A DNA stretch of 52,690 nt, from contig LXFE01000205.1 in NCBI GenBank assembly GCA_001929475.1, forward strand, positions 1-52,690, written 5' to 3'. This DNA comes from Neolecta irregularis DAH-3 (taxonomy: Eukaryota). Position 1 is the first letter of the stretch, and every line of letters begins with the position of its first letter. The position numbers and the translations under genes are program-made. The notes under the pieces were generated by a model. The model did no database searches. It worked only from the letters and a program-made list of their open reading frames with translations, and had not been told where the DNA came from. Of the stretch, positions 62 to 38,096 are shown in pieces.

Positions 62-199
62 CTTATTCAATCGATTTTATAATTCTTATTCAATCGATTT
101 TATAATTCTTATTCAATCGATTTTATAATTCATTCTTCAATCGATTTTATAATTCATTATTCAATCAATTTTATAATTCATTATTCAATCAATTTTAAT
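62..199. repeat. AT-rich tandem minisatellite, ~6 copies of a 23-24 bp unit (C[A]TTATTCAATCGATTTTATAATT)
   Basis: Units start at 62, 85, 108, 131, 155 and 179; the first three are identical and later ones degenerate; no spacers between units. Confidence 0.95.
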
Positions 200-319: not shown

Positions 320-1213
320 ATGATATTTCATCTAGACTGCTCCGCTATAAAAACACCACCCCTCTCTACCTCGATCCTCTCAATCATCATCGTACTCGGT
401 GTAATACTCTCGTATATCCCCCAGGTACGAAATCCTTGCACCTCTCTCACAAATAGCATTACAGAATCATATTAAAGAAATCGTCAGAAGGGATTTCTCC
501 CTGGTTTCTGCTTCTCGGCATTACTTCCACATCCGACGCTCTCATAAACATTCTCATCCTCCAATATCCCATTTTAAAATGCTGCCAAGAATTGGTATTC
601 TTTCACATCTAATTATTTGACTGTTAGGGTCCTGGAAAATGTTTTATCGCCACACTTGGAATCGCTCAGATTGCAATGGGGTTCTTGATGTTTACAATCA
701 TGTATCCTTTTCATTCCTCACAACCCTAATTTATAGTGTCGTCTTGGTTACCGTTTACCCGGCCCATGAACAAGCGACTCTTGTATCATTAATCTCACTC
801 GTTCATTTCATCGTTCTCATTATTCTGTCATTGTTTCTCCAAAACAGAACCGGATTTGCAAATGTAATCGGTATTATATCCGCTGTACTCGCTGTATGTC
901 AATACGTGCCTCAAATCATGACTACATACAAGAGGAAAAATATCGGGAGTCTCAGTATTCCAATGATGCTCCTTCAAACACCAGGGAGTTTTATCTTCGT
1001 CTTGAGTTTGCTGGGAAGGGAAGGAGTAATATGGAGCACTTGGGCAATGTACTTGGGCAAGGTTCACCCCGTTTATATAGCTAACAAATAGTCACCGGTC
1101 TACTCCAGGGCATATTGTTGATTATTTGTCTGAAATTCGAATGGAGAGGGAGAGTTGACGCTGCTGAACGAGAACCTTTGCTTACATCGGAGCAGAGAGC
1201 TGACGTTGAATAA
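320..1213 (+). CDS. PQ-loop repeat membrane transporter (5 exons)
   Basis: Spliced SYIPQ|HYRIILKKSSEGISPWF and QYVPQIMTTYKRKNIGSLS PQ-loop motifs; introns 425-456, 595-627, 702-736 and 1057-1091 (GC-AG); C-terminal EREPLL dileucine motif. Confidence 0.9.
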
Positions 1214-1242
1214 TTTACTTTCTAATATTTCCATATTTAATA

Positions 1243-1875
1243 CTAGAAAAATAAAGCCAATGCAAGACTGGAAATAGCAGTTAGTCCAAGCACAGCATAG
1301 CCAGTAGCATAGACACCCTTTAGAGAAAGACCTAGATGTCAGCCTGCAAAACCGAGCACAAAACCTCGTCCTGTATCCCAAAGCAAATGCCGCATGCCAT
1401 TGAAACTGTGAAACGTAAAGGGCAAAGCAGCCAGCATCTTTAGCGAAACCTTCTCCCATCCAGGAAGAGAACTAAAAGCAGCCACGAGAGAAGAAGTATC
1501 GAGACTCCAGCCAAATATGGGCGAAAAGAGATAGGCAGAGGCAAACAGATAAAGGCCTGCAAGTCAGAAAGGGCATAGCAACTACATATGCCTCCCGAAG
1601 CAATTGTACCAGTAATTCTGTTGGCCGCAGACATATACCAGGTGAGCTGCGGCTGATAAATCGTCAAATGCGGCGACGTGGGTCGTCTCTTTCGTTGGTC
1701 TTCTAGAATCTTGTTCGCCTCACTGGCGGCAAGTGCCTGCGATGTTACCCTTCTACATCATCGTTCAGCCCCAGAAAATCATATAATAGTACCTCGCAGG
1801 AACAGCAGTAGCAGATCTAAGCAGACCTACTCTACATGTCGCGACAATCGGGTAAAAGACAGTACGCAAAGTCAT
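1243..1875 (-). CDS. SDH3: Succinate dehydrogenase cytochrome b560 subunit (SDHC), 4 exons
   Basis: [30 protein letters not shown] and [10 protein letters not shown] motifs; N-terminal mitochondrial presequence; intron 1557-1591 is GC-AG. Confidence 0.93.
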
Positions 1876-2133
1876 TGATAGTCCTGTCAAAATGAAAGCA
1901 CAGTTGGTGTTGCCCAATCCATCCAAATTAGTGGCCTTTATTTTTTCGCGGTGCTTATAAAACCGGGTTTTTCACTTCAGAGTCTCTGAATTTCATCGGC
2001 AGGTCAAAATTTCCTTTGTCGCTCCCATTTGCGGCAGGGACATGCACTTGCCGAAGAGCGATTCTATCCGAATTAATCACCCTCCATAATTTGCCATTTA
2101 TCATTGGGTTTCATGCCTCGGTAATATCTATAT

Positions 2134-2742
2134 CTATTCTTGCTTGCTGTCTCGATATCCCATTTTTCTTTGCAATTTTGAAAATAGGGGATTGTCGTTT
2201 TTTTTTGCTTTGTTTACTTTGCGCGGGTTCAGGCACATTGACCGACCTCCAACCAGCCCCCATCCTATCTTCCACTTCCCACTCATCCTAATCTTAATAT
2301 CCTCGCAATCATGTCTCATGACTTTGCCTCTTATCTCCAAAACACACCCTCCACCGCATACAAATGGGCTCGCGATAATACCACAAATCATACAAATCAC
2401 CATGATATTACCGATACTATTGACAACTCTGCATTCATCCGAGGTGGCTCTCAATGTACCATTCAAACCTGACTTGTAGACGAAATCAACTCTAGCCGCA
2501 TGGACAGGGTTAATAGATTAGCTCAAATACTCGATGATATGCAATCGCGCACCCCAGCAACGAAAAGTCCAACCTCGGACAGTGCTCTTCTCGCTCGAGA
2601 CGACAAGGTATTCTACTACTTTATCTAGTTTGATCAAAGTCTGAGCGTTCTTCTTGCACCCTATTGCCTCACCGCGCAAACTCGGTCCCGGTTGACAGTC
2701 ATCACTCGAGGCAGGTTCCATTGAGGTAAACCATCTCGACAT
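2134..2742 (-). CDS. Hypothetical protein (start and exon structure uncertain)
   Basis: Two same-frame ORFs (2518-2880, 2134-2466) joined by a 39-nt GT-AG intron 2492-2530 that removes the stop; no family recognised. Confidence 0.45.
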
Positions 2743-2856: not shown

Positions 2857-4777
2857 ATGGAACCCCCAATTCATGAGCAATCATCAAGCATAACTGCACC
2901 AACTACTCCTTCCATATCATACCACGATCGAGAAAAGACTCGATCGTCGTTTCAACAGCCAAATATCTCGATTCTTACAAACCAAGCGACGATTGCTCCT
3001 ACCCAACGAGCTAGTCCTAGCGCGAGTTCGAATGGTCTAAGCTGGACCAGCGATTTGATAAAGGAGCATCTGGCAGAACTCTTACGAACAACCGAGTCTG
3101 ACGAGGAATATCAAAGTTTACCAACAAAAAGTCCTACACCGAAAATGACTATTGAGGAATTTACTAAAATTCCTGAACCAGAGCAAATGGATTCAAAGGC
3201 TTTTCAAAAGACAAGACATTCTGCTGGCAGATCTTTTGATAGAAACGTTTCTTCCGAGTCGCAGTATATAGCAAACTTCGAGGCTATGTCGCAGTCACTG
3301 TCTTTTATCAATTCTCCTGAAGCACCAGTTGCGCAGAAATACGAGAGACCACTTATCGATATTGATGTAGACGAATATTCTGGGCACACCAGTTACTGTG
3401 TGGAACCGGTACTTTCTAATACCCAAACGTCGGCCCAAAAGCACGATAAAAAGTTCGTTACGCCATCTCGACACAAGCTGGTGCATGAGCAAACGTTCTA
3501 TTCGAAGGCAAATGCTACCCAAGGGTTTGTATCGCCCGTGAGCGTTCTCTCCCTGCCTTCTGACCATGATCACCATGAATCACTGGATCGACTCACACCT
3601 CGCAAAGATCCGCGCGATGAAGAGTTACTTTTAATGACCTCTACGCTTGCACAATTGTCGAGAGAGTGTGAAAGACGTGGAAAGCTTATTGATGAACTAG
3701 TTGACGATGTAAAGCAACTGAGCAGTAGTCCTCCTCGTAGAGACGAGAAGCTTGAGAACGAACTAGCTGATGCGCGACGAGAAATTAAGGCACTTAAAAT
3801 CTTGACTAGAGAGCTCACGGAACATGCTTCAAGTCCTCATCCGCCGGTGGCCGAGTCTCTGCCTAGTCGAGAAAAGTTGCGACCTCTTGATGCCCAAACT
3901 CCAGCTCGCTTCAACGAAACTGAAACTGTTGAAGAAAAGATGGGTCGTTGGGAAACGTACCTCGAGACTCCTGTTTTCAAGTATCAATTCTATAATGTGG
4001 ATTCTGACTTGAAGGACCAAGAAAACTATGCAAATGAAGGAGAACGAACCAATTCAACAGACGGTACGCCAAGAATTACCTCGCGTCCAAGAATTACCTC
4101 GCGTCCAACAAGAATCACAACGTTTTACAAATCTTCATAAACCTCATCAGGCACAACATAAAATGGAAACAGATATCGAGCGAGTTCGACGTTTAGCAAA
4201 TCTTCATATATCTCTACATGAAACTCCAAATAAAATGGAGAATGATATTGAACGGCTCAAGCGGGCGTTACGACAGGCTCAAGAAGAGATCGATGTTTTG
4301 AGAAGCTCGGGTGGTCATGCACAACATGCAAAAGCTCTCACACCTCAAACGATGCCTGGTACTATTATATATGTGCAAAGCTGATAGTAGATTCAAAAGA
4401 TCAGGGTGTTCCGCGGGAGGAAAAGATGTACTATCGGTTACAATTGTACAAGATTGACCGGCTATGTTCGAATGAAACAGCCAATTTGTTGAAGGCATTT
4501 CATATTTTTGAGGGGGTACTTACTTTAGAATATTTTGATCCAGATGGATATACCGCTGGACATGCTACCTCAACGGGTGATGGATTCACGAGAGCAGTAC
4601 AATGAGAATAAGCTGCTGAAACGGTTCGCAGAGGACATTCATGGGATATTGTATGATGGGGAGAAGATGAAGGGGGTGGATAAGAAATGCCTTGGAGAGA
4701 TGGTAGGACGGCTAGGCAAGCTGGTGAAGGGTGTAGAGAAGCGGCGGTACCAGTCGCGGAGGAGTGTGGTTGTTTAA
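2857..4777 (+). CDS. Ser/Thr-rich coiled-coil protein, possibly spindle-pole-body associated (4 exons)
   Basis: Long ORF with heptad segments (LENELADARREIKALK; DIERLKRALRQAQEEID); introns near 3957, near 4359 and 4495-4528 (GC-AG) give a continuous frame; internal 18-bp tandem repeat at ~4069-4108. Confidence 0.7.
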
Positions 4778-4828
4778 CTTTTGAAACGGTTTTGATAGTT
4801 TGTACAATATGAATAGTTGGGCATAGTC

Positions 4829-5386
4829 TTATGAGGGCAGAATTCTTTCAAGGCAGAACGACTGGGCTTTTGCAGCGCCTTTTGAAAGAGCGATGCCTCC
4901 AATGATTGCTTCTACGCATTCACTTGCAACTTGAGCCTTTGCAGATTTGTGAAGGTCGGCCTGGGGGTTAGCGGGGGAGGGATGGCAGGGGCACAGCACG
5001 AAGGCGGGCTTCCAGCGCATGATGGCTGATACGTTGTGTTGCAGGGCAAAGTTATGGATGGCATCTGAGGAGGTTTTTGCGGTGACAGGGTTCTCTACGG
5101 ACTCGAGGCCGGCAGTCTGTAGTGTTTTTGAGAGGGATACGAACTTGATGGTACGGCGTCCTTGGGTAAGAGACAGAACAGGAAGGAGAGCGGCACCGAG
5201 GAAGGCGAGCTTGTCGTTGTAGGGGAGGGAGCCGTGTGAGTAGGACTTGTGGGTGACGCACTGCCAGACGAGAGAGGGCAGCAGGTAGGAATCTGGGGGG
5301 GCGCCGAGGAGTGCGAGGTAGAAGCGGTGCAGCAGGCGGGAGTCTGTGTTTACGGCAAAGGGGGTGGAGCGTGGGCGCAGGGACAT
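4829..5386 (-). CDS. MRPL15: Mitochondrial ribosomal protein mL57 (RNase III-like fold)
   Basis: WQCVTHKSYSHGSLPYNDKLAFLG, MRWKP and VEAIIGGIALSKG motifs; two in-frame introns (36 and 39 nt). Confidence 0.88.
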   Translation of the reverse strand: MSLRPRSTPFAVNTDSRLLHRFYLALLGAPPDSYLLPSLVWQCVTHKSYSHGSLPYNDKLAFLGAALLPVLSLTQGRRTIKFVSLSKTLQTAGLESVENPVTAKTSSDAIHNFALQHNVSAIMRWKPAFVLCPCHPSPANPQADLHKSAKAQVASECVEAIIGGIALSKGAAKAQSFCLERILPS

Positions 5387-5459
5387 GAGAGGGTGGAGGA
5401 GGTACGGGTGCGCACGTGCACAATGCGCATATATGCCATGGGCGCTGCATACAGCGGCA

Positions 5460-5803
5460 ATGCTGCTGCTGCTGCTGCTATATACCGCCGCTGCCTCTGC
5501 GCAGTTCGCCTTCTTCGACCAGATGTTCCAGCGCCCGCAGGCGATTATCTACAACGCCGACACCTACAGGGCCCAGTATGCCGCGGGTACTCAGCCCCTG
5601 GGGTTCTGCTAACGGCAGGCGAATGCAATGGCTATGTCTGCCCCGACACCCTCACCTGCGTCGACCTGCCCGCCAGCTGCCCCTGCCGCTTCCCGCAGGA
5701 GACAAAGTGTCTGGTTGGCAGCTCCTACTTCTGCATCTCGGCTGTCGAGACGGGCAACGCATGCGACTTTGTCCGCGCAGTAGCAAAGGGCCGCTCCCTC
5801 TGA
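5460..5803 (+). CDS. LCL2: Long chronological lifespan protein 2 (secreted/ER, Cys-rich)
   Basis: Signal peptide, then QFAFFDQMF, then CNGYVCPDTLTCVDLPASCPC; intron 5587-5618. Confidence 0.9.
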
Positions 5804-5848
5804 CCTCTGTATATATATATCCCTTAATCCTTGTTCCATGCATATATA

Positions 5849-6876
5849 CTAACCCTTTTGCCCTCCCTGCAGCCACTCGTACACCACCCCAAAGTCCTTG
5901 CCCCTGCGGCTCTCCGCCACCTCCGCATACACCCCCTGCGCCGCGTCCTTCAGGCCCAGCCACACCCCGCGCTCCTTCGCCGCCTCGCATGCCAGCTTCA
6001 GGTCCTTCTCCATCAGCTCCACGGCAAACCCCCCGTGGTATCCCCGCTCCACCGGCGCATCTCGCGTCACGCCCAACACAGGGTTGTTGGCCTCAGACGC
6101 CCAGCACCTCCCAGTACTCGAATTGATGATCTCTCCCAGCACCTTGGCCTCCAGCCCCAGCTCCAGCCCCAGATTCATCGCCTCGCATGTTGCAATGTTG
6201 GATATCGCAAGCAGGTAATTATTGCTCAGCTTCGCCGCTAGTCCAAGCGTGGGCGAGCCACACGCTATGATACGCTTCCCCATAAAAATAAGCGCCTGGC
6301 TCACATCCGCAAGCTGAGTCGACTCTTTTGATAGCCCTACCATAAACGTGAGCGTCCCGTTCTGAGCCCCAATAACCCCGCCCTGCATCAATGTTGGCCC
6401 GCATCATACAATATCATACCGACACAGGAGCATCAACAAACATTGCATTGTGATGTGTAATCTTTCTCGCCAGCTCGCCAGACGTCTTGATGTCAATCGT
6501 GCTGCAATCTCTAGTGAGACACAGGTCTATCAGGTGCAAATACCGATATAAATCTGCTTTCCCCGCGGTGTGATTTGCTGAAAGAGCGTCTTCATGGTTG
6601 TTCCATCCGGGAGCATCGTTATTATTGTATCCTTGGATCAACTTCTCTTCTCTAAAACCCCTTTACTGCTTCATCTACAACCTCTTGGGCCGTCTTGGCA
6701 ATATCCACTCCCGTGGGCGGTTTCACATCATACATTATAACCTTTTCTCCCGATCGTTGCAAATTCCGAGCCATCGGTAACCCCTCTCGTCAATAACTGT
6801 TACGCACCATACCTTACCATTCTACCAAGACCAATAAAGCCATAATGCAAACTTCGCCGAAATACAATTGATGGCA
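5849..6876 (-). CDS. HIBADH: 3-hydroxyisobutyrate dehydrogenase (5 exons)
   Basis: GFIGLGRM|GLPMARNL Rossmann motif, DCSTID, FVDAPVS|GGV, KLSNNYLLA, SSTGRCWAS, GGFAVELMEKDL. Confidence 0.92.
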
Positions 6877-11817: not shown

Positions 11818-12553
11818 ATGAAATCCACGAGTTAGGATATTTACTTTTTAGCCTTAATAATGGAATGGAAATTTTGAATGTCCCATATATTCCATATAGT
11901 GCTCGTCTTGGTGATAAATCTGGTCGTCTGGTACTGATAAAGATCGCTTGCTTTATAGTCACAAACCAGATGCATCATTATTTGGTGACACGGGCGCTCA
12001 ACATTCCTTTGTTCATGTTTATACCTTGACTGGGTGACTTTTCGTGATATAGAAATTGCTCAAAAGCATCTCAAAGCTCATTCAGATCCGCTGATCTCAG
12101 CTAAAATCGAGAACCTGGGTTTATCGTTTGCGGGTACCTATCCTCTGCCATTTACAAGCATAGTCCTAAACATTGCCGCAGCAACTCTTGCCTCGGTACT
12201 CTTAACCTTGTCATTCTAGATTTTTTCCTCTTCCAGGAGTTGGGTTCACCAGTATATATCTTATATCATGTCGGGCAGGACTTTTCCCTCGACTTGGTAG
12301 AATTAATCAGGATGAGCAATCCTCATTTAACCATTCGTGGATCAGTCCGGGTCTAATAAAGCAGGTAGAGAGCTTTGCTGCTATAACAGCAAAAGAACGT
12401 AAAAATCTTGGAGAGTGAACAGAAAAAAGAGAGAAGGAAAAAAGGATGTAAATCACTTTCAATCTTGCCTCTCTCTGCCATACTTAGTTTGAGGTTTCCT
12501 GTAAGTACATCTTGCACTGTTCATAGTTTCTAGCGATTTCTCCAACCACCAGA

Positions 12554-13888
12554 ATGCCTGACGGAGCTGCCCTCAAAGCACAAGCAGTCGTAGCTCTTGA
12601 AAAGGGCGACAACAAAGATGCCATTGAACTACTGACTCGGGCAATTGAGCAAATACCAACCAGTATCGATTATTATATCAAGCGGTACTTCACAGCATAT
12701 TGCCGGACGGGACCTAACCTCATAGATCTAATGCATACCAACGCGATAAACAATACGATATGGCCCTTAGAGACTCAGAAAAGGCCGTCAAAATGGCAGG
12801 AGACGGGGGAAAACGAGAGCTTATCGGCCAAGCGCAGTTTAGACGCGGGTTTATTGCTTCGATAAAGATCGGTGTCTTACTGGTAGAATCGCGTTTTACA
12901 TGAAAGATAACTTTGCATCAGCAAAGCAGTGTTTTGAATGGGCCGAGAAATACGACGGTGAGAAAAAGCTGATTAATATCTGGAAATCAAAGCTCTCTAA
13001 TAAAGATATCTCCAGCCAATCCGCCATTCTCGAATTCCCAGATATTGAGAACGAAGCCTTCGTTCACGAAGCTTCATCTGGTATGCATATATATTTTGTG
13101 AATATTAATTATACTAGGACTGAGGGGAGGATCTCAACCATTAGGTGGTTATGGTACCCCTATGGCCGTATTCTCTTGCAAAGTCTAACCAGGTCTAGCC
13201 AGTGAGATTAGTTCAAATTCTAAGCAATCGATAGACATTCCACTGCTCGCGAGGCAGTCAAGTATTGACATTAACTTATCCTTGTAGGGACTGAAATTTA
13301 GTTTCTGAAACTACAGATCTTCCCGCAAAGGTCCGCCATGAATGGTATCAGACAGCATCTCATGTCATTGTTACACTTTTCGTTAAGAATATTCCAAAAG
13401 AAAAAATCAAAGTCGAAATTACCCCTACCAGCCTATCTGTCTCATTTCCGAATACCAAAGGGTCAGAGTTCGCATTTGATATTGACCCCTTTGCCCACCA
13501 AGTGTCAAAAGAAGAGTCGTCATTTCGAGCTCTTAGCACCAAACTTGAAGTTCACTTAAAAAAAGTCGAGCCTAAGCAATGGAATGTTCTAGAGGGAGCA
13601 GAAGAAAGCAAACCCCAAGGTATAGAATACCCTACTTCTTCGCGAAAAGGTGCCAAAAACTGGGACTCCATTGCGAACGAAACGAAAGAAGATGATGATT
13701 CAGGTAACCCCGATGCTCTATTCAAGCACCTCTTCAAAGACGCTGACGAGGATATGAAACGTGCAATGATGAAGAGCTATGTTGAAAGCAACGGTACAGC
13801 TCTAAGCACCGATTGGAGGAGTGTTTCGAAGGAGAAGGTTGAATGTTTACCACCTGATGGTATGATTGCCAAGAAGTGGGAGGTTTGA
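12554..13888 (+). CDS. SGT1: Hsp90 co-chaperone Sgt1 (TPR-CS-SGS)
   Basis: N-terminal TPR; KVRHEWYQT CS domain; YPTSSRKGAKNWD and KRAMMKSYVESNGTALSTDW SGS domain; up to 6 introns. Confidence 0.95.
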
Positions 13889-14010
13889 TAAAAATTATAC
13901 ATAGTTTTTCTTTCTATTTCTGTGGGGCCTATTCCACTTCGTTCGTCATCTGATATGTATTTTCCTGAGACACCACTTCAGGAATGTTGGTTTTGTGAAG
14001 TACCTCGTTG

Positions 14011-14991
14011 ATGTATCCTCTGCCTCCGTTGGCGTCTCCACATTCATTAAGCGGAATCGCTGGAAGCATAAGCATCGCTTGGTTTTCGTCTTGATATTCA
14101 GAGAATTAACTTAGTAGCTGGGTTGTTGTTTTCAGCCCGCAGATCATTGAAAATTACAAAAGAAGATCTGGAGACGGACTTTCGCTCGCTTTCCTCTGGA
14201 TTTGGCTTCTCGGTGATGTATTCAATGTGGCAGGTGCACTGTTCCAGGGGATCATGCCAACCATGGTATCACAACTTCTAATGCAAATGTTTTATAATGC
14301 CAGACGATCCTGGCGTTCTACTATACTCTCGCGGATGTCGTGCTCATTTTACAAGTCCATTATTACAGAAAATATGGAAATAAACTCGAATCTTTCCCCG
14401 AGCATCTGAGCGAAACTGAACCTTTGATCCCGTCAGTGTCCACCGAAGTACCCATATTTGAAATGAAACAAAAGCGAGCTCTTATTCGAAACAGTATACC
14501 AGACAAATTATCAAGCTCATAGAGATAGTCGCATACAATACGACTATTCTATTTGCCGTATGGCTAGCTGGGTTCTTTGCTTGGATTTTGCTTACCTTCG
14601 TTTTGCCTCGGTCAGGGAATTTTTGTGAAGGTGCATCTCTATCTATCCCAGGCAAACACGCTAAGCCATTATGTTCAAATGCTTATGACTAGGCCAAATT
14701 TCAGGCTGGATCTCTGCAATGCTTTATATCGGTTCGCGATTACCTCAAATCTTCAAAAATCATCGGAAAAGGTCGTGCGAGGGACTTAGCTTATTGTTTT
14801 TCATGTTTAGTGTCTCGGGGAATACGACATATGTTGCGAGCATCTTGCTGCAACATGCTTCTCGTTCGTGGCTGGCATTAAACGCGAGTTGGATTGCGGG
14901 GAGTACAGTGACACTTTTTCTTGACTTTGCAGTATTTTGTCAATTTTGGAGATACGGGACCATGTCTACAACGGCAACATATGTTGATTAA
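14011..14991 (+). CDS. Vacuolar PQ-loop basic amino-acid transporter (Ypq/PQLC2 family)
   Basis: GSISIACWVVVFSPQIIENYKRRSGDGLS and LYIGSRLPQIFKNHRKRSCEGLS; 4 introns. Confidence 0.9.
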
Positions 14992-15305
14992 ATATTGAAT
15001 CGCTTGGCACACATAACTTCTCATAACCGCCCGTGCAATTGCCTACTTGAGCCAGTTATACTTGTGATGAGTTCAGTTCTATGCAGTTGCTAGTTTTGAC
15101 CTGCCTTGCGAGACTCTTCCAATGCTTTCCCGAGTCAGCTGTAAAAATGGATTCAGTAACAGCGGCCAAATACAGGGGATATTCAGTTGACATGCCAGAA
15201 TCTATCTAAGAGGGGACGATACAAAGAACAAAGATAGTCATGGAAAAGGTTGCTCTAACTATAAGGTTAAACTATAATGCGACAGCTCACCGAAAGAACG
15301 TGTTG

Positions 15306-15692
15306 TCAAGCTGAGAGAGTACCATATCCAGGGTTATCCGAGTACACTCCCTGGATACATAAGCAGGCTGCAGGGGATATGCGATACCTGGGGCTGCTGC
15401 TGTACAGGTTCTCCTCGTTCGGCTCTCTCTTTGGCTTTATAATGAATATATTCAAGGTAGAAACTTGCCAATCAATGTCAAAAACACAGATTGTGTCTGA
15501 TACGCGTGGATATGGCCTGGAATAACACCCAAGATCGTCAGGAGAATGTTGATGAGCAAGTCACCTGTATTCTATCAACGATGAGAAGAAGGACGGAAAC
15601 GCACATCCACAGCCGTAGAGTAGAAACACGCCAATAGGTGGAAACAGAATGGTGATAAGAATAACGAGTAGGGCAGACATGTTGGAGTCCAT
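15306..15692 (-). CDS. PMP3: Pmp3/Sna family plasma-membrane proteolipid
   Basis: ILFPPIGVFLLYGCG|CDLLINILLTILGVIPGHIHA; 3 introns. Confidence 0.85.
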
Positions 15693-15885
15693 GGTAGCAT
15701 AATGCAGACCAACACGCCTCTCAATATACTGTCGCCCACGTGTAACATATCTCATCATTCTGGCTTCTTTGCTTGATGCATAACTAGTCTATGATTAGAT
15801 AATTGATTTGTGCAGCACTGGGAAGGCATTGTATATAGTAGGCATAGACCGCTACGCTTGCATTCTAAATTGTTTGGATGCTAAA

Positions 15886-15893
15886 TGACGTCA
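15886..15893. promoter_or_regulatory. CRE palindrome TGACGTCA (Atf1/Pcr1-type bZIP site) in the divergent PMP3 / aldo-keto reductase promoter
   Basis: Perfect palindrome ~75 bp upstream of the AKR ATG; a second near-site TTACGTCA at ~15956. Confidence 0.5.
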
Positions 15894-15966
15894 CGATTTG
15901 CATTTGGGAAACAATACAAAAACCGGAAGCTCGCCGTATTGGATGTCAACTTACATTACGTCAGAC

Positions 15967-17072
15967 ATGGCCACGAGGCGACTTATCGAGTTAAATTCTG
16001 GCGACAAGATTCCCGCAATGGGTCTGGGAACCTGGCTTTCGAAAAAAGGCGAAGTTGCGGTAGCTGTCAGCCATGCTCTCAAAGTTGGATATCGGCACAT
16101 TGATGTACAATTTTGTTACTAAAGGTGGACTGGTCTGAAACAACCAGTGTGCTTCAATTTACGGAAACGAAGGGGAAGTAGGCGCTGGAATAAAGAAGTC
16201 CGGTGTGCGAAGAAAGGACATTTGGTTGACGTCAAAGCTCTGGAATAATAGGTACGCACTTTCTTTTCTTGTACTGATTCAATCTAGTCACCAACCAGAA
16301 GATGTACCTAGAGCCCTGGAAAAGACCTTGTCCGATTTACAAACTGACTATCTGGATCTCTACTTGGTATTTCTTCCACAACGAATACAGCTAATCGAAT
16401 GATGCATTGGCCATGTAGTTTTAAAGCCGGGAAATCTCCAATGCCAAGGGACTCTAATGGAAAACATGCTCTTGGAGATACAGATTTCACAGTTACCTGG
16501 TCCGCAATGGAAAGGTTGCTTGAAGAAGGCAAAGTTCAAAACATCGGAATCAGTAACTTCTCCAAAGCTGAGCTTGAAAAGCTTCTTGAACATGCAACTG
16601 TTAAACCTGCCGCACATCAATTGGAAATGCATCCCTATCTTCAGCAAAACTCATTCTTGGATTTCCATAAAGAGAAAGACATTCACGTTACGGCATATTC
16701 TCCATTTGGAAATCAGAATACTATTTATGGTGCCAAAGATACTAAGATTGTTGACCACGACGTTATCAAAGGTATCGCAGAGAAACTTGGAAAGAAACCT
16801 AGTCAAGTCATTCTTTCTTGGGCAATCGGACGTGGCGTTAGCATCGTACCGAAGTCAGTTAACGCCGAACGGATTGAAGAAAACTTTCAAGGTGTGTTCC
16901 TATATTCGATAACAAAAGATAAGGACTAATAGGAGTCTTCGAACTGAGCGCAGAGGAGAGCAAAGCTATTGATCGACTAGAAAAGAAGAAACGTTACAAC
17001 AATCCTTCAAAATCATGGGGATATGAATTTTATGCTGATCTAGATGGGGCAGGGAAACAAGCAAATCTGTAA
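15967..17072 (+). CDS. NADPH-dependent aldo-keto reductase (GCY1/YPR1-like)
   Basis: [46 protein letters not shown]; 4 introns, the third lacking a usable AG. Confidence 0.93.
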
Positions 17073-17111
17073 GCTATGCGCTTAGAAGTACGATAAGACC
17101 AAATGTTGTAA

Positions 17112-17284
17112 CTAGCCTAAGTAGACGTACTTCGCGAGGGGAACATACCTAGCCTAAGTAGATGTGCTTGGCTAAGTATTTCCCCGTTCCCGTCCCTATA
17201 CACTATTTACATCAATAGCCGCCCTACCATTTCCGTCATTTCCGTCTTTGGTAAGGATATACTCGAGTGTATATCCTTACTAAA
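17112..17284. repeat. Cluster of direct and inverted repeats (possible DNA-transposon end relic)
   Basis: Direct repeat CTAGCCTAAGTAGA at 17112 and 17149; imperfect hairpin 17138-17185; 16-bp-arm hairpin 17247-17284 (15/16 match). Confidence 0.75.
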
Positions 17285-37340: not shown

Positions 37341-38096
37341 CTATAATGTTCTTAGCGGGCTGCTTTGCGCATTGGTGATGGACTCGAGAACAATTTTCAT
37401 AATCGCCTCTTGAACATCCTCCAGACTTTCAGATGCATCAAGGACTCGCCAGTCGTCTTTTTCTTTGGGAATTTCTTTTAGTTTGTTGAAGACATGTCTA
37501 ACACAGTGTTGCATCTCCTTTTCTTCATATCGTTCTTTGCCGTATCCAGCTCGAGTGCACGCGACTTCTTCAGAAATATCCAGAAATATCACGGCGTCTG
37601 GGCGAGGAAGCCCGACATCGGGATTTCTACACCAACTGAAATCCAAACCCTTGTTGTGAGTTGGGCAGGACAAGCAGTGCTTGCCTTCGCACATGTAAAC
37701 GCAACTCCAGAATAGACATATCGATCTACGATGACAGTAATCCCTTCGTGTATGTCTCGCAAAAGACTCTCTCTAAGCGATTAGTTTTGACAGGACCAGG
37801 CTGATTGGGCAAACCTCGCTTCCCATCTATTTGCCGAAAACAGCAAGTGGATAGCCTGGTCATCTAAATCTGATTGATTCTTTAAGTATGAGTCAATCAT
37901 TTTGCCAATTGGAGTTTCTCTGTCCAGCTTTCTTAGTCTATATATTCAATGATGTTTTACCTGGGAACTTCCGAAGCTTTGATGCTATGCCCGTTTGTTG
38001 AAGTTTCGTCATAAGCATAGCACATTGGGATGACTTCCCAGAACGATCAAGGCCTTCTATGGCAATAAACGCCCCGCGCCTATTTGTACTTGTCAT
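37341..38096 (-). CDS. CDC8: Thymidylate kinase (4 exons; an in-frame upstream ATG at 38126 is possible)
   Basis: [64 protein letters not shown]. Confidence 0.95.

Follow-up and report, generated by a model that had tools for sequence, protein, structure and literature searches.

The third intron of an aldo-keto reductase (AKR) gene of Neolecta irregularis DAH-3 ends in TG instead of AG, and its exact splicing at this sole acceptor was confirmed here. The gene is carried by contig LXFE01000205.1 of assembly GCA_001929475.1, analysed over positions 1 to 52,690 (this whole 52,690-nt stretch is called the window; positions given without a contig refer to it). With a probability of about 0.86, the element is an ordinary major-spliceosome intron whose acceptor mutated from AG to TG and which is still spliced at this only 3' site, according to the mechanism proposed below. 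Few rules of gene structure are as firm as the terminal AG, and a TG spliced as sole acceptor in an intact gene shows that this rule can lapse in nature.

Structure and splicing of the AKR gene

Two sequencing runs were aligned to positions 12500-17050 of the window, one providing a DNA contig (X1) and the other labelled 'DNA?' (X2). At AKR intron 3, X2 displayed one contig of depth 930, which skipped exactly 35 nt. This skip fits three registers (TG..AA, GG..AT and GT..TG), only the last of which, corresponding to positions 16367-16401, has a GT donor. X2 was treated as complementary DNA (cDNA) because its 15 listed joints (out of 17) were located at introns, its depth was gene-specific and an intergenic gap was present. 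The listed joints belonged to introns of four genes; 14 of them were GT-AG and the fifteenth was AKR intron 3. Depth in bin 16300-16451 amounted to 715.9, which equals 930 x 117/152, and this bin therefore contained no intron-retaining contig. An earlier note, made from the sequence, had proposed a 35-nt GT-TG intron joining DLYL to MHWP, or else a 32-nt GT-GA intron. The first proposal, including its sequence and coordinates, was borne out by the exact skip, whereas the second is excluded in the X2 contig. The gene was organized as follows.

15967..16104, plus strand: exon 1 (frame and homology; the public model begins at ATG 15943; outside the X2 contig)
16105..16147, plus strand: intron 1, GT-AG, 43 nt (frame and homology; not among the X2 joints listed)
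16148..16251, plus strand: exon 2 (frame and X2 contig)
16252..16287, plus strand: intron 2, GT-AG, 36 nt (X2 joint)
16288..16366, plus strand: exon 3, with DLYL at its end (frame and X2 contig)
16367..16401, plus strand: intron 3, GT-TG, 35 nt, phase 0, sole acceptor (X2 skip, public protein, no canonical alternative with HWP)
16402..16891, plus strand: exon 4, starting with MHWP, which includes the catalytic His (frame, X2 contig and alignment)
16892..16935, plus strand: intron 4, 44 nt, GAG end (X2 joint, 44 nt skipped)
16936..17072, plus strand: exon 5, through the stop codon (frame and X2 contig)

The best database match of the gene was a 290-aa protein of N. irregularis DAH-3. Once 16367-16401 is removed, the AKR frame is open and DLYL-M-HWP is formed; the public AKR protein (P0001) uses the same junction. 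Residues D54, Y59, K84 and H117 of P0001, which we take to be the catalytic Asp-Tyr-Lys-His tetrad, were identical to those of aldehyde reductases in an alignment, and the tetrad of PF00248 lies in an intact frame. At the DNA level the gene is single-copy in the Neolecta assembly (G000).

It is hardly credible, and already largely refuted, that the assembly is wrong here or that the gene is a recent pseudogene retaining the intron. The X1 contig (depth 434) displayed no difference over 4551 bases of the window and has T at position 16400, where the earlier note had asked whether reads would show A; X1 is possibly the source of the assembly itself and hence not independent of it. The presence of the spliced form, the intact frame and catalytic residues and the single-copy status of the gene also speak against this explanation, so that the retention or pseudogene outcome raised in the same note gave way to a spliced and intact gene.

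It is likewise very improbable that the T of the assembly is a mutant allele and that the nuclei providing the RNA had AAG. X1 and X2 derive from separate samples whose organism labels differ, the intronic base is covered by no X2 contig and contig assembly can mask a minor allele, all of which would suit such a mismatch. X2, however, covered 28 of 30 bins without any listed differing letter (AKR exon 1 and intron 1 being outside its coverage), and independent introns ending in BG (TG, GG or CG) occur in other essential genes.

Artefactual or unusual origins of the joint carry very little probability. A reverse-transcriptase template switch could be suspected from the 2-nt repeat (TG) flanking the joint, but two letters are very short and the protein requires exact removal. 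Editing of the RNA to AG is contradicted by the fact that A-to-I conversion cannot make AG from TG, and editing of a nearby AA would produce an out-of-frame 33-nt intron. Nested splicing would have to fit two introns into 35 nt, which is too short given that the 1st percentile of predicted AG intron length is 31. U12-type splicing, the last of these options, is considered below with the splice signals.

One X2 contig (window 13302-15255) spans the SGT1 gene, a PQ-loop gene and the 3' end of a minus-strand gene near 15255, and transcripts of this region therefore abut or overlap. At the other side, a dispersed repeat of ~120 nt (window 17058-17182) overlaps the stop codon and 3' end of the AKR gene. 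Its first part matched 39 other places, with copies 81-96% identical, and a perfect hairpin lies downstream of it at about 17253-17282; the repeat is possibly a small non-autonomous transposon.

Splice signals of AKR intron 3 and canonical alternatives

16367..16374, plus strand: 5' splice site, an ordinary U2-type donor scoring above 79% of the donors of 1710 predicted AG introns
16389..16395, plus strand: branch-point motif (CTAAT) with putative branch A at 16394, scoring above 73% of predicted branch sites
16400..16401, plus strand: TG acceptor, with A(-2) changed to T and G(-1) retained (window sequence, identical in the X1 contig)

As the earlier note had pointed out, the TG is located 7 nt past the branch A, where AG usually sits: AG introns of this genome have their acceptors within 6-12 nt. 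It is the first G-ending site of that interval, and a second in-frame TG, 10 nt past the branch A, is unused. Retention of the intron leads to a stop after 118 aa, in agreement with the read-through stop noticed earlier. The claim that the only AG lies upstream of the branch and gives an immediate stop was correct for a CAG at 16390, which precedes branch A 16394, but its use leads to a stop three codons on and thus not strictly at once. Downstream, the next AG is out of frame, at a distance of 24 nt from the branch A, and none of the six GT/GC-AG combinations giving a long AKR frame preserved HWP. TG is the sole acceptor because the catalytic His motif survives none of the AG removals; nor does this TG belong to a TG-AG tandem, as no competing AG removal leaves HWP. 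The spacer between DLYL and HWP was one residue in all 96 motif-matching homologs (23 of 119 homologs fell outside the search pattern), which disfavours the 32-nt GT-GA option and its two-residue spacer.

The donor, the branch motif and its distance, and the exact removal all correspond to a U2-type intron, and only the terminal AG is missing; AKR intron 3 is a non-canonical variant of this type. U12-type introns are characterized by an RTATCCTT donor and a TCCTTAAC branch. Positions +5 and +6 of the AKR donor deviate from this consensus, and the branch motif is unlike it, which makes U12-type splicing just as improbable as the other unusual origins. A search of the genome for U12 snRNA gave zero matches, positive controls being likewise silent.

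Acceptor choice and donors in the Neolecta genome

Intron anatomy was deduced from 808 kb of the genome (the window and about 756 kb), in which a self-trained parser predicted 1710 AG introns with a median length of 38 nt. The acceptor was located 6-12 nt past the branch A in 1678 of them and at 3-5 nt in ten. Their last three bases were TAG (737), CAG (566), AAG (333) and GAG (74). One GAG acceptor was confirmed in the X2 contig, namely that of AKR intron 4 (16892-16935), where the GAG used lies at 6 nt from the branch A and a TAG at 3 nt is bypassed. Altogether, an AG situated 3-5 nt from the predicted branch A was bypassed in 5 of the 15 transcript-confirmed introns whose joints were listed. 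As acceptors are found 6-12 nt beyond the branch A, with AGs nearer to it bypassed, position and the final G most likely fix the cut, and such a distance-plus-final-G choice is well supported by the anatomy.

GC donors were encountered in 131 of the 1710 predicted introns. Three candidate GA-AG introns were also observed:

C2531, L048 about 5740-5776: candidate in ARP3
C809, L081 about 4285-4320, minus strand: candidate in an aminotransferase gene
C3033, L029 about 6633-6670: candidate in TRM732

Two of the three, as read from the sequence, have the donor GAAAGT. This reading relied in part on motifs which we presumed to be conserved. Together with the GC donors, these candidates suggest that donors may be relaxed too, and the tolerance would then be wider than first thought. 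Gene models of Neolecta need to accommodate ends other than AG and GT; the public AKR model wrongly runs into intron 4 (16892-16935) and is truncated there.

Other introns with BG acceptors

Further introns whose predicted ends are BG were distributed as follows.

37924..37960, minus strand: CDC8 (thymidylate kinase) intron 1, GT-GG, 37 nt, ending 9 nt past the branch A (homology)
C2803, 60928-60891, minus strand: DEAD-box helicase intron, GT-GG (homology, Pfam spacing)
C3237, 18526-18491, minus strand: SPT5 intron, GT-TG, 36 nt (homology)
C493, 2250-2215, minus strand, and C3033, 8635-8671, plus strand: further candidates, GT-GG and GT-CG, probable only (sequence)

In CDC8, only the GG end yields the FPDR motif with the spacing of four out of four homologs; the alternatives are an AAG at 5 nt, which is out of frame, and a GAG at 15 nt, which deletes DR. 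Spacing in Pfam fits only the GG end of the DEAD-box intron, as the AG alternative would imply a 23-nt intron and five extra residues. Read-through of the SPT5 intron gives an exact 12-residue insertion relative to Spt5 of fission yeast and other yeasts, as expected of a 36-nt GT-TG intron, although its retention would stay in frame. Homology thus supports BG acceptors in these three introns. Of the two non-AG acceptors announced for the window by the earlier note, the AKR one was found in a spliced contig and the CDC8 one, GT-GG, follows from homology. Its remark that both keep the terminal G proved right, and G was retained in all four well-supported non-AG acceptors (AKR TG, CDC8 GG, DEAD-box GG and SPT5 TG), three of which were hand-picked. 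The tolerance of BG acceptors which it proposed is supported for the AKR intron, where a spliced contig has TG in use as its sole acceptor, and probably holds for the others.

The CDC8 gene occupies window 37341-38096 on the minus strand. No Neolecta protein of at least 180 aa was returned for CDC8, a weak negative, and its public model may be missing or truncated.

The parser survey admitted all 15 non-AG ends at equal cost and was insensitive and noisy. It yielded 47 non-AG candidates beside 1676 AG introns; the translations of all 47 were inspected, together with the DNA context of 16 and the flanks of 17 against Pfam (30 of 73 flanks). Candidates in CYT1, CCT8, a ubiquitin protease gene, U2AF1, HSP70, a PPR gene and a TIM17-like gene were rejected as canonical introns or upstream artefacts, three others fitted GA-AG donors better, and one was ambiguous between GG-AG and GT-GG. 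No non-G acceptor among the 47 gained homology support in this non-exhaustive check. When candidate flanks were compared with PDB, short queries found no match and a longer SPT5 query did. A local donor-plus-branch scan, giving 164 loci without an in-frame AG, consisted mostly of false positives and was set aside. Since the parser missed CDC8, one of the two cases of the window, BG counts are lower bounds.

Divergence of the Prp18 conserved loop

A single Prp18 gene was found in Neolecta (contig C702 of G000, L010 about 1130-2310, minus strand; protein P0121). Compared with 149 homologs, its conserved loop displayed the substitutions N258H, W261N, V265I, T266A, V268A, H271K, R273K, A284T and H285K. 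These nine columns are 90-99% conserved, and six of the new residues were absent from every homolog. Of 150 rows, 140 were sufficiently complete for scoring, and Neolecta had the highest number of changes among them, with 9 of 16 near-invariant loop columns affected, while 121 of the 140 had at most one. Outside the loop, only 3 of 18 invariant columns were changed and the flanking helices were conserved. The loop was kept in the homologs of Saitoella and Pneumocystis (0 and 1 changes, respectively). Ten of the most diverged loops were assigned to organisms; the second most diverged of the 140 belonged to Rozella allomycis (P0248 / P0276), with 6 of 16 loop columns and 1 of 18 outside columns changed. 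Mis-annotation is possible in Rozella, where three residues immediately preceding the loop differ between the two public models.

The inspected parts of the Prp8 alpha-finger, zinc finger 1 of the U2AF small subunit, U5 loop 1, the branch-binding region of U2 and the U6 motifs were normal, and Slu7 and Fyv6 are present in Neolecta. Loss of Prp18, Slu7, Fyv6 or the U2AF small subunit, or an altered Prp8 alpha-finger, was looked for and not found. The U6 snRNA gene (L031 269-417, minus strand, C1963) has an intron-like insert of ~50 nt just before the AGC triad. Besides the main Prp8 gene on C2538, extra partial and diverged Prp8-like matches, one with a stop, were found in G000 at C4303:125-265 and C2568:207-436; they are possibly pseudogene fragments or contamination.

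In yeast, BG and GAG acceptors become active when Prp18 is lost or its conserved loop is deleted, AUG being among the best used (PMC10711555), and the loop steadies the docked 3' site (PMC8022279). The mechanism proposed here would start with very short introns defined by donor and branch point, as the intron anatomy of the genome suggests. After branching, a G-ending site would be docked within a narrow interval, 6-12 nt beyond the branch A. The intron's last G would still pair with its first G, as is generally held and as described in available passages of PMC10711555, and only the contact made by A(-2) would be lost. The least certain step is the last one, in which tolerance of BG would be aided by decay of the Prp18 loop that, in yeast, steadies the docked 3' site and enforces YAG. 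The loop is a specific and testable candidate cause, advanced tentatively, at somewhat less than even odds. A broader picture is speculative and also falls short of an even chance: a spliceosome with a decayed Prp18 loop would choose acceptors by branch distance and final G, letting sole BG acceptors persist in essential genes, and Rozella, whose introns are tiny and whose loop is the second most diverged, would have reached the same state independently. If true, the yeast prp18 mutant would have an equivalent in nature, and the loop would be a sequence marker for AG-independent splicing.

Rate of BG introns and weight of the evidence

A different view accepts a real, spliced GT-TG intron and disputes the cause alone: it would be a rare exception, at about 0.1%, which any fungal spliceosome allows, the Prp18 change being unrelated. 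This appears unlikely, though it has arguments of its own. The available parts of PMC11590231 list 79 GT-BG introns out of 92,107 curated introns (0.086%) in Ganoderma, and the two to four BG introns found among 1611 outside the window fit that rate. Inside the window, BG introns were 2 of about 103 (P = 0.004 against 0.086%), a selected window and a post hoc comparison. The survey being a lower bound that missed one of the two cases of the window, the common occurrence of GAG acceptors and of GC and GA donors, and the fact that, among 140 Prp18 loops, those of Neolecta and Rozella diverge most also disagree with a mere rare exception.

Several observations weigh against the interpretation preferred here, namely a mutated acceptor still spliced through distance and final G with the help of a decayed Prp18 loop. 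The RNA support consists of a single assembled contig from a single run tagged 'DNA?', whose cDNA status was deduced from its joints and depth, and since assembled contigs lose minor isoforms, this contig gives no measure of splicing efficiency. The distribution of branch-acceptor distances, obtained with a self-trained model, is partly circular. Outside the window, the BG introns were not significantly above the Ganoderma rate (P = 0.40-0.05), so that the survey gave no support there for a genome-wide BG rate exceeding that of other fungi, and the 47 parser candidates were not enriched in G (11 of 47 ended in G). Divergence inside and outside the Prp18 loop was weakly correlated across homologs (rho 0.32), and GA-AG and GC-AG donors are unexplained by Prp18. 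Finally, substrates with a short branch-to-acceptor distance need no Prp18, as stated in the available parts of PMC10711555, and loop decay may therefore be a consequence of the short distance and not the cause of tolerance, short introns perhaps having released the loop first; the rare-exception view profits from the same fact.

Comparison with known systems

Deletion and loop mutants of Prp18 in Saccharomyces cerevisiae resemble the Neolecta case: Roy et al. (2023, PMC10711555) describe BG ends with AUG among the best, raised GAG use, many sites fewer than 10 nt away from the branch point and the last G kept. In those engineered mutants, the BG ends are alternative error sites favoured by poly(U) tracts, whereas the Neolecta genome is a natural one in which an intact gene has TG as its only site, the intron has no pyrimidine tract and Prp18 is present with a substituted loop. 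With its nine named substitutions, this diverged loop makes the enforcement of A(-2) directly testable, the acceptor for a yeast reporter being already known. U2-type introns of humans can likewise terminate in TG (Szafranski et al. 2007, PMC2374985); there TG was reported as an alternative beside AG and never as the sole site, in contrast to the Neolecta TG, which has no usable AG. Ganoderma lingzhi also has GT-BG introns (TG, GG and CG) in annotated genes, and the examined passages of PMC11590231 propose no mechanism and show no preference for the 79 BG ends over the remaining non-AG ends. Lineage-wide non-canonical tolerance, known from Oikopleura and Eurytemora with their GA-AG introns (Frey and Pucker 2020, PMC7072748), is paralleled by the three GA-AG candidates; those cases concern donors, the Neolecta TG an acceptor.

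Neolecta was unmentioned in the text of PMC7072748 and one of its supplementary files. Splicing and introns were unmentioned in the main text of PMC5309816, the examined parts of its supplement giving only intron density, and the word 'canonical' was not found in the text of PMC3629103. No report of non-AG introns or of Prp18 in Neolecta was found in the literature covered, which was incomplete and left most subscription papers outside. Neolecta is nevertheless said to have many non-canonical introns, and a prior description is thus possible.

Other features of the window

At the start of the contig, an AT-rich unit of 24 nt is repeated in tandem (5.7 copies, window 63-197). Three short genes (window about 4800-6250) coincide with an increase in GC content to about 53%, compared with about 43% elsewhere.
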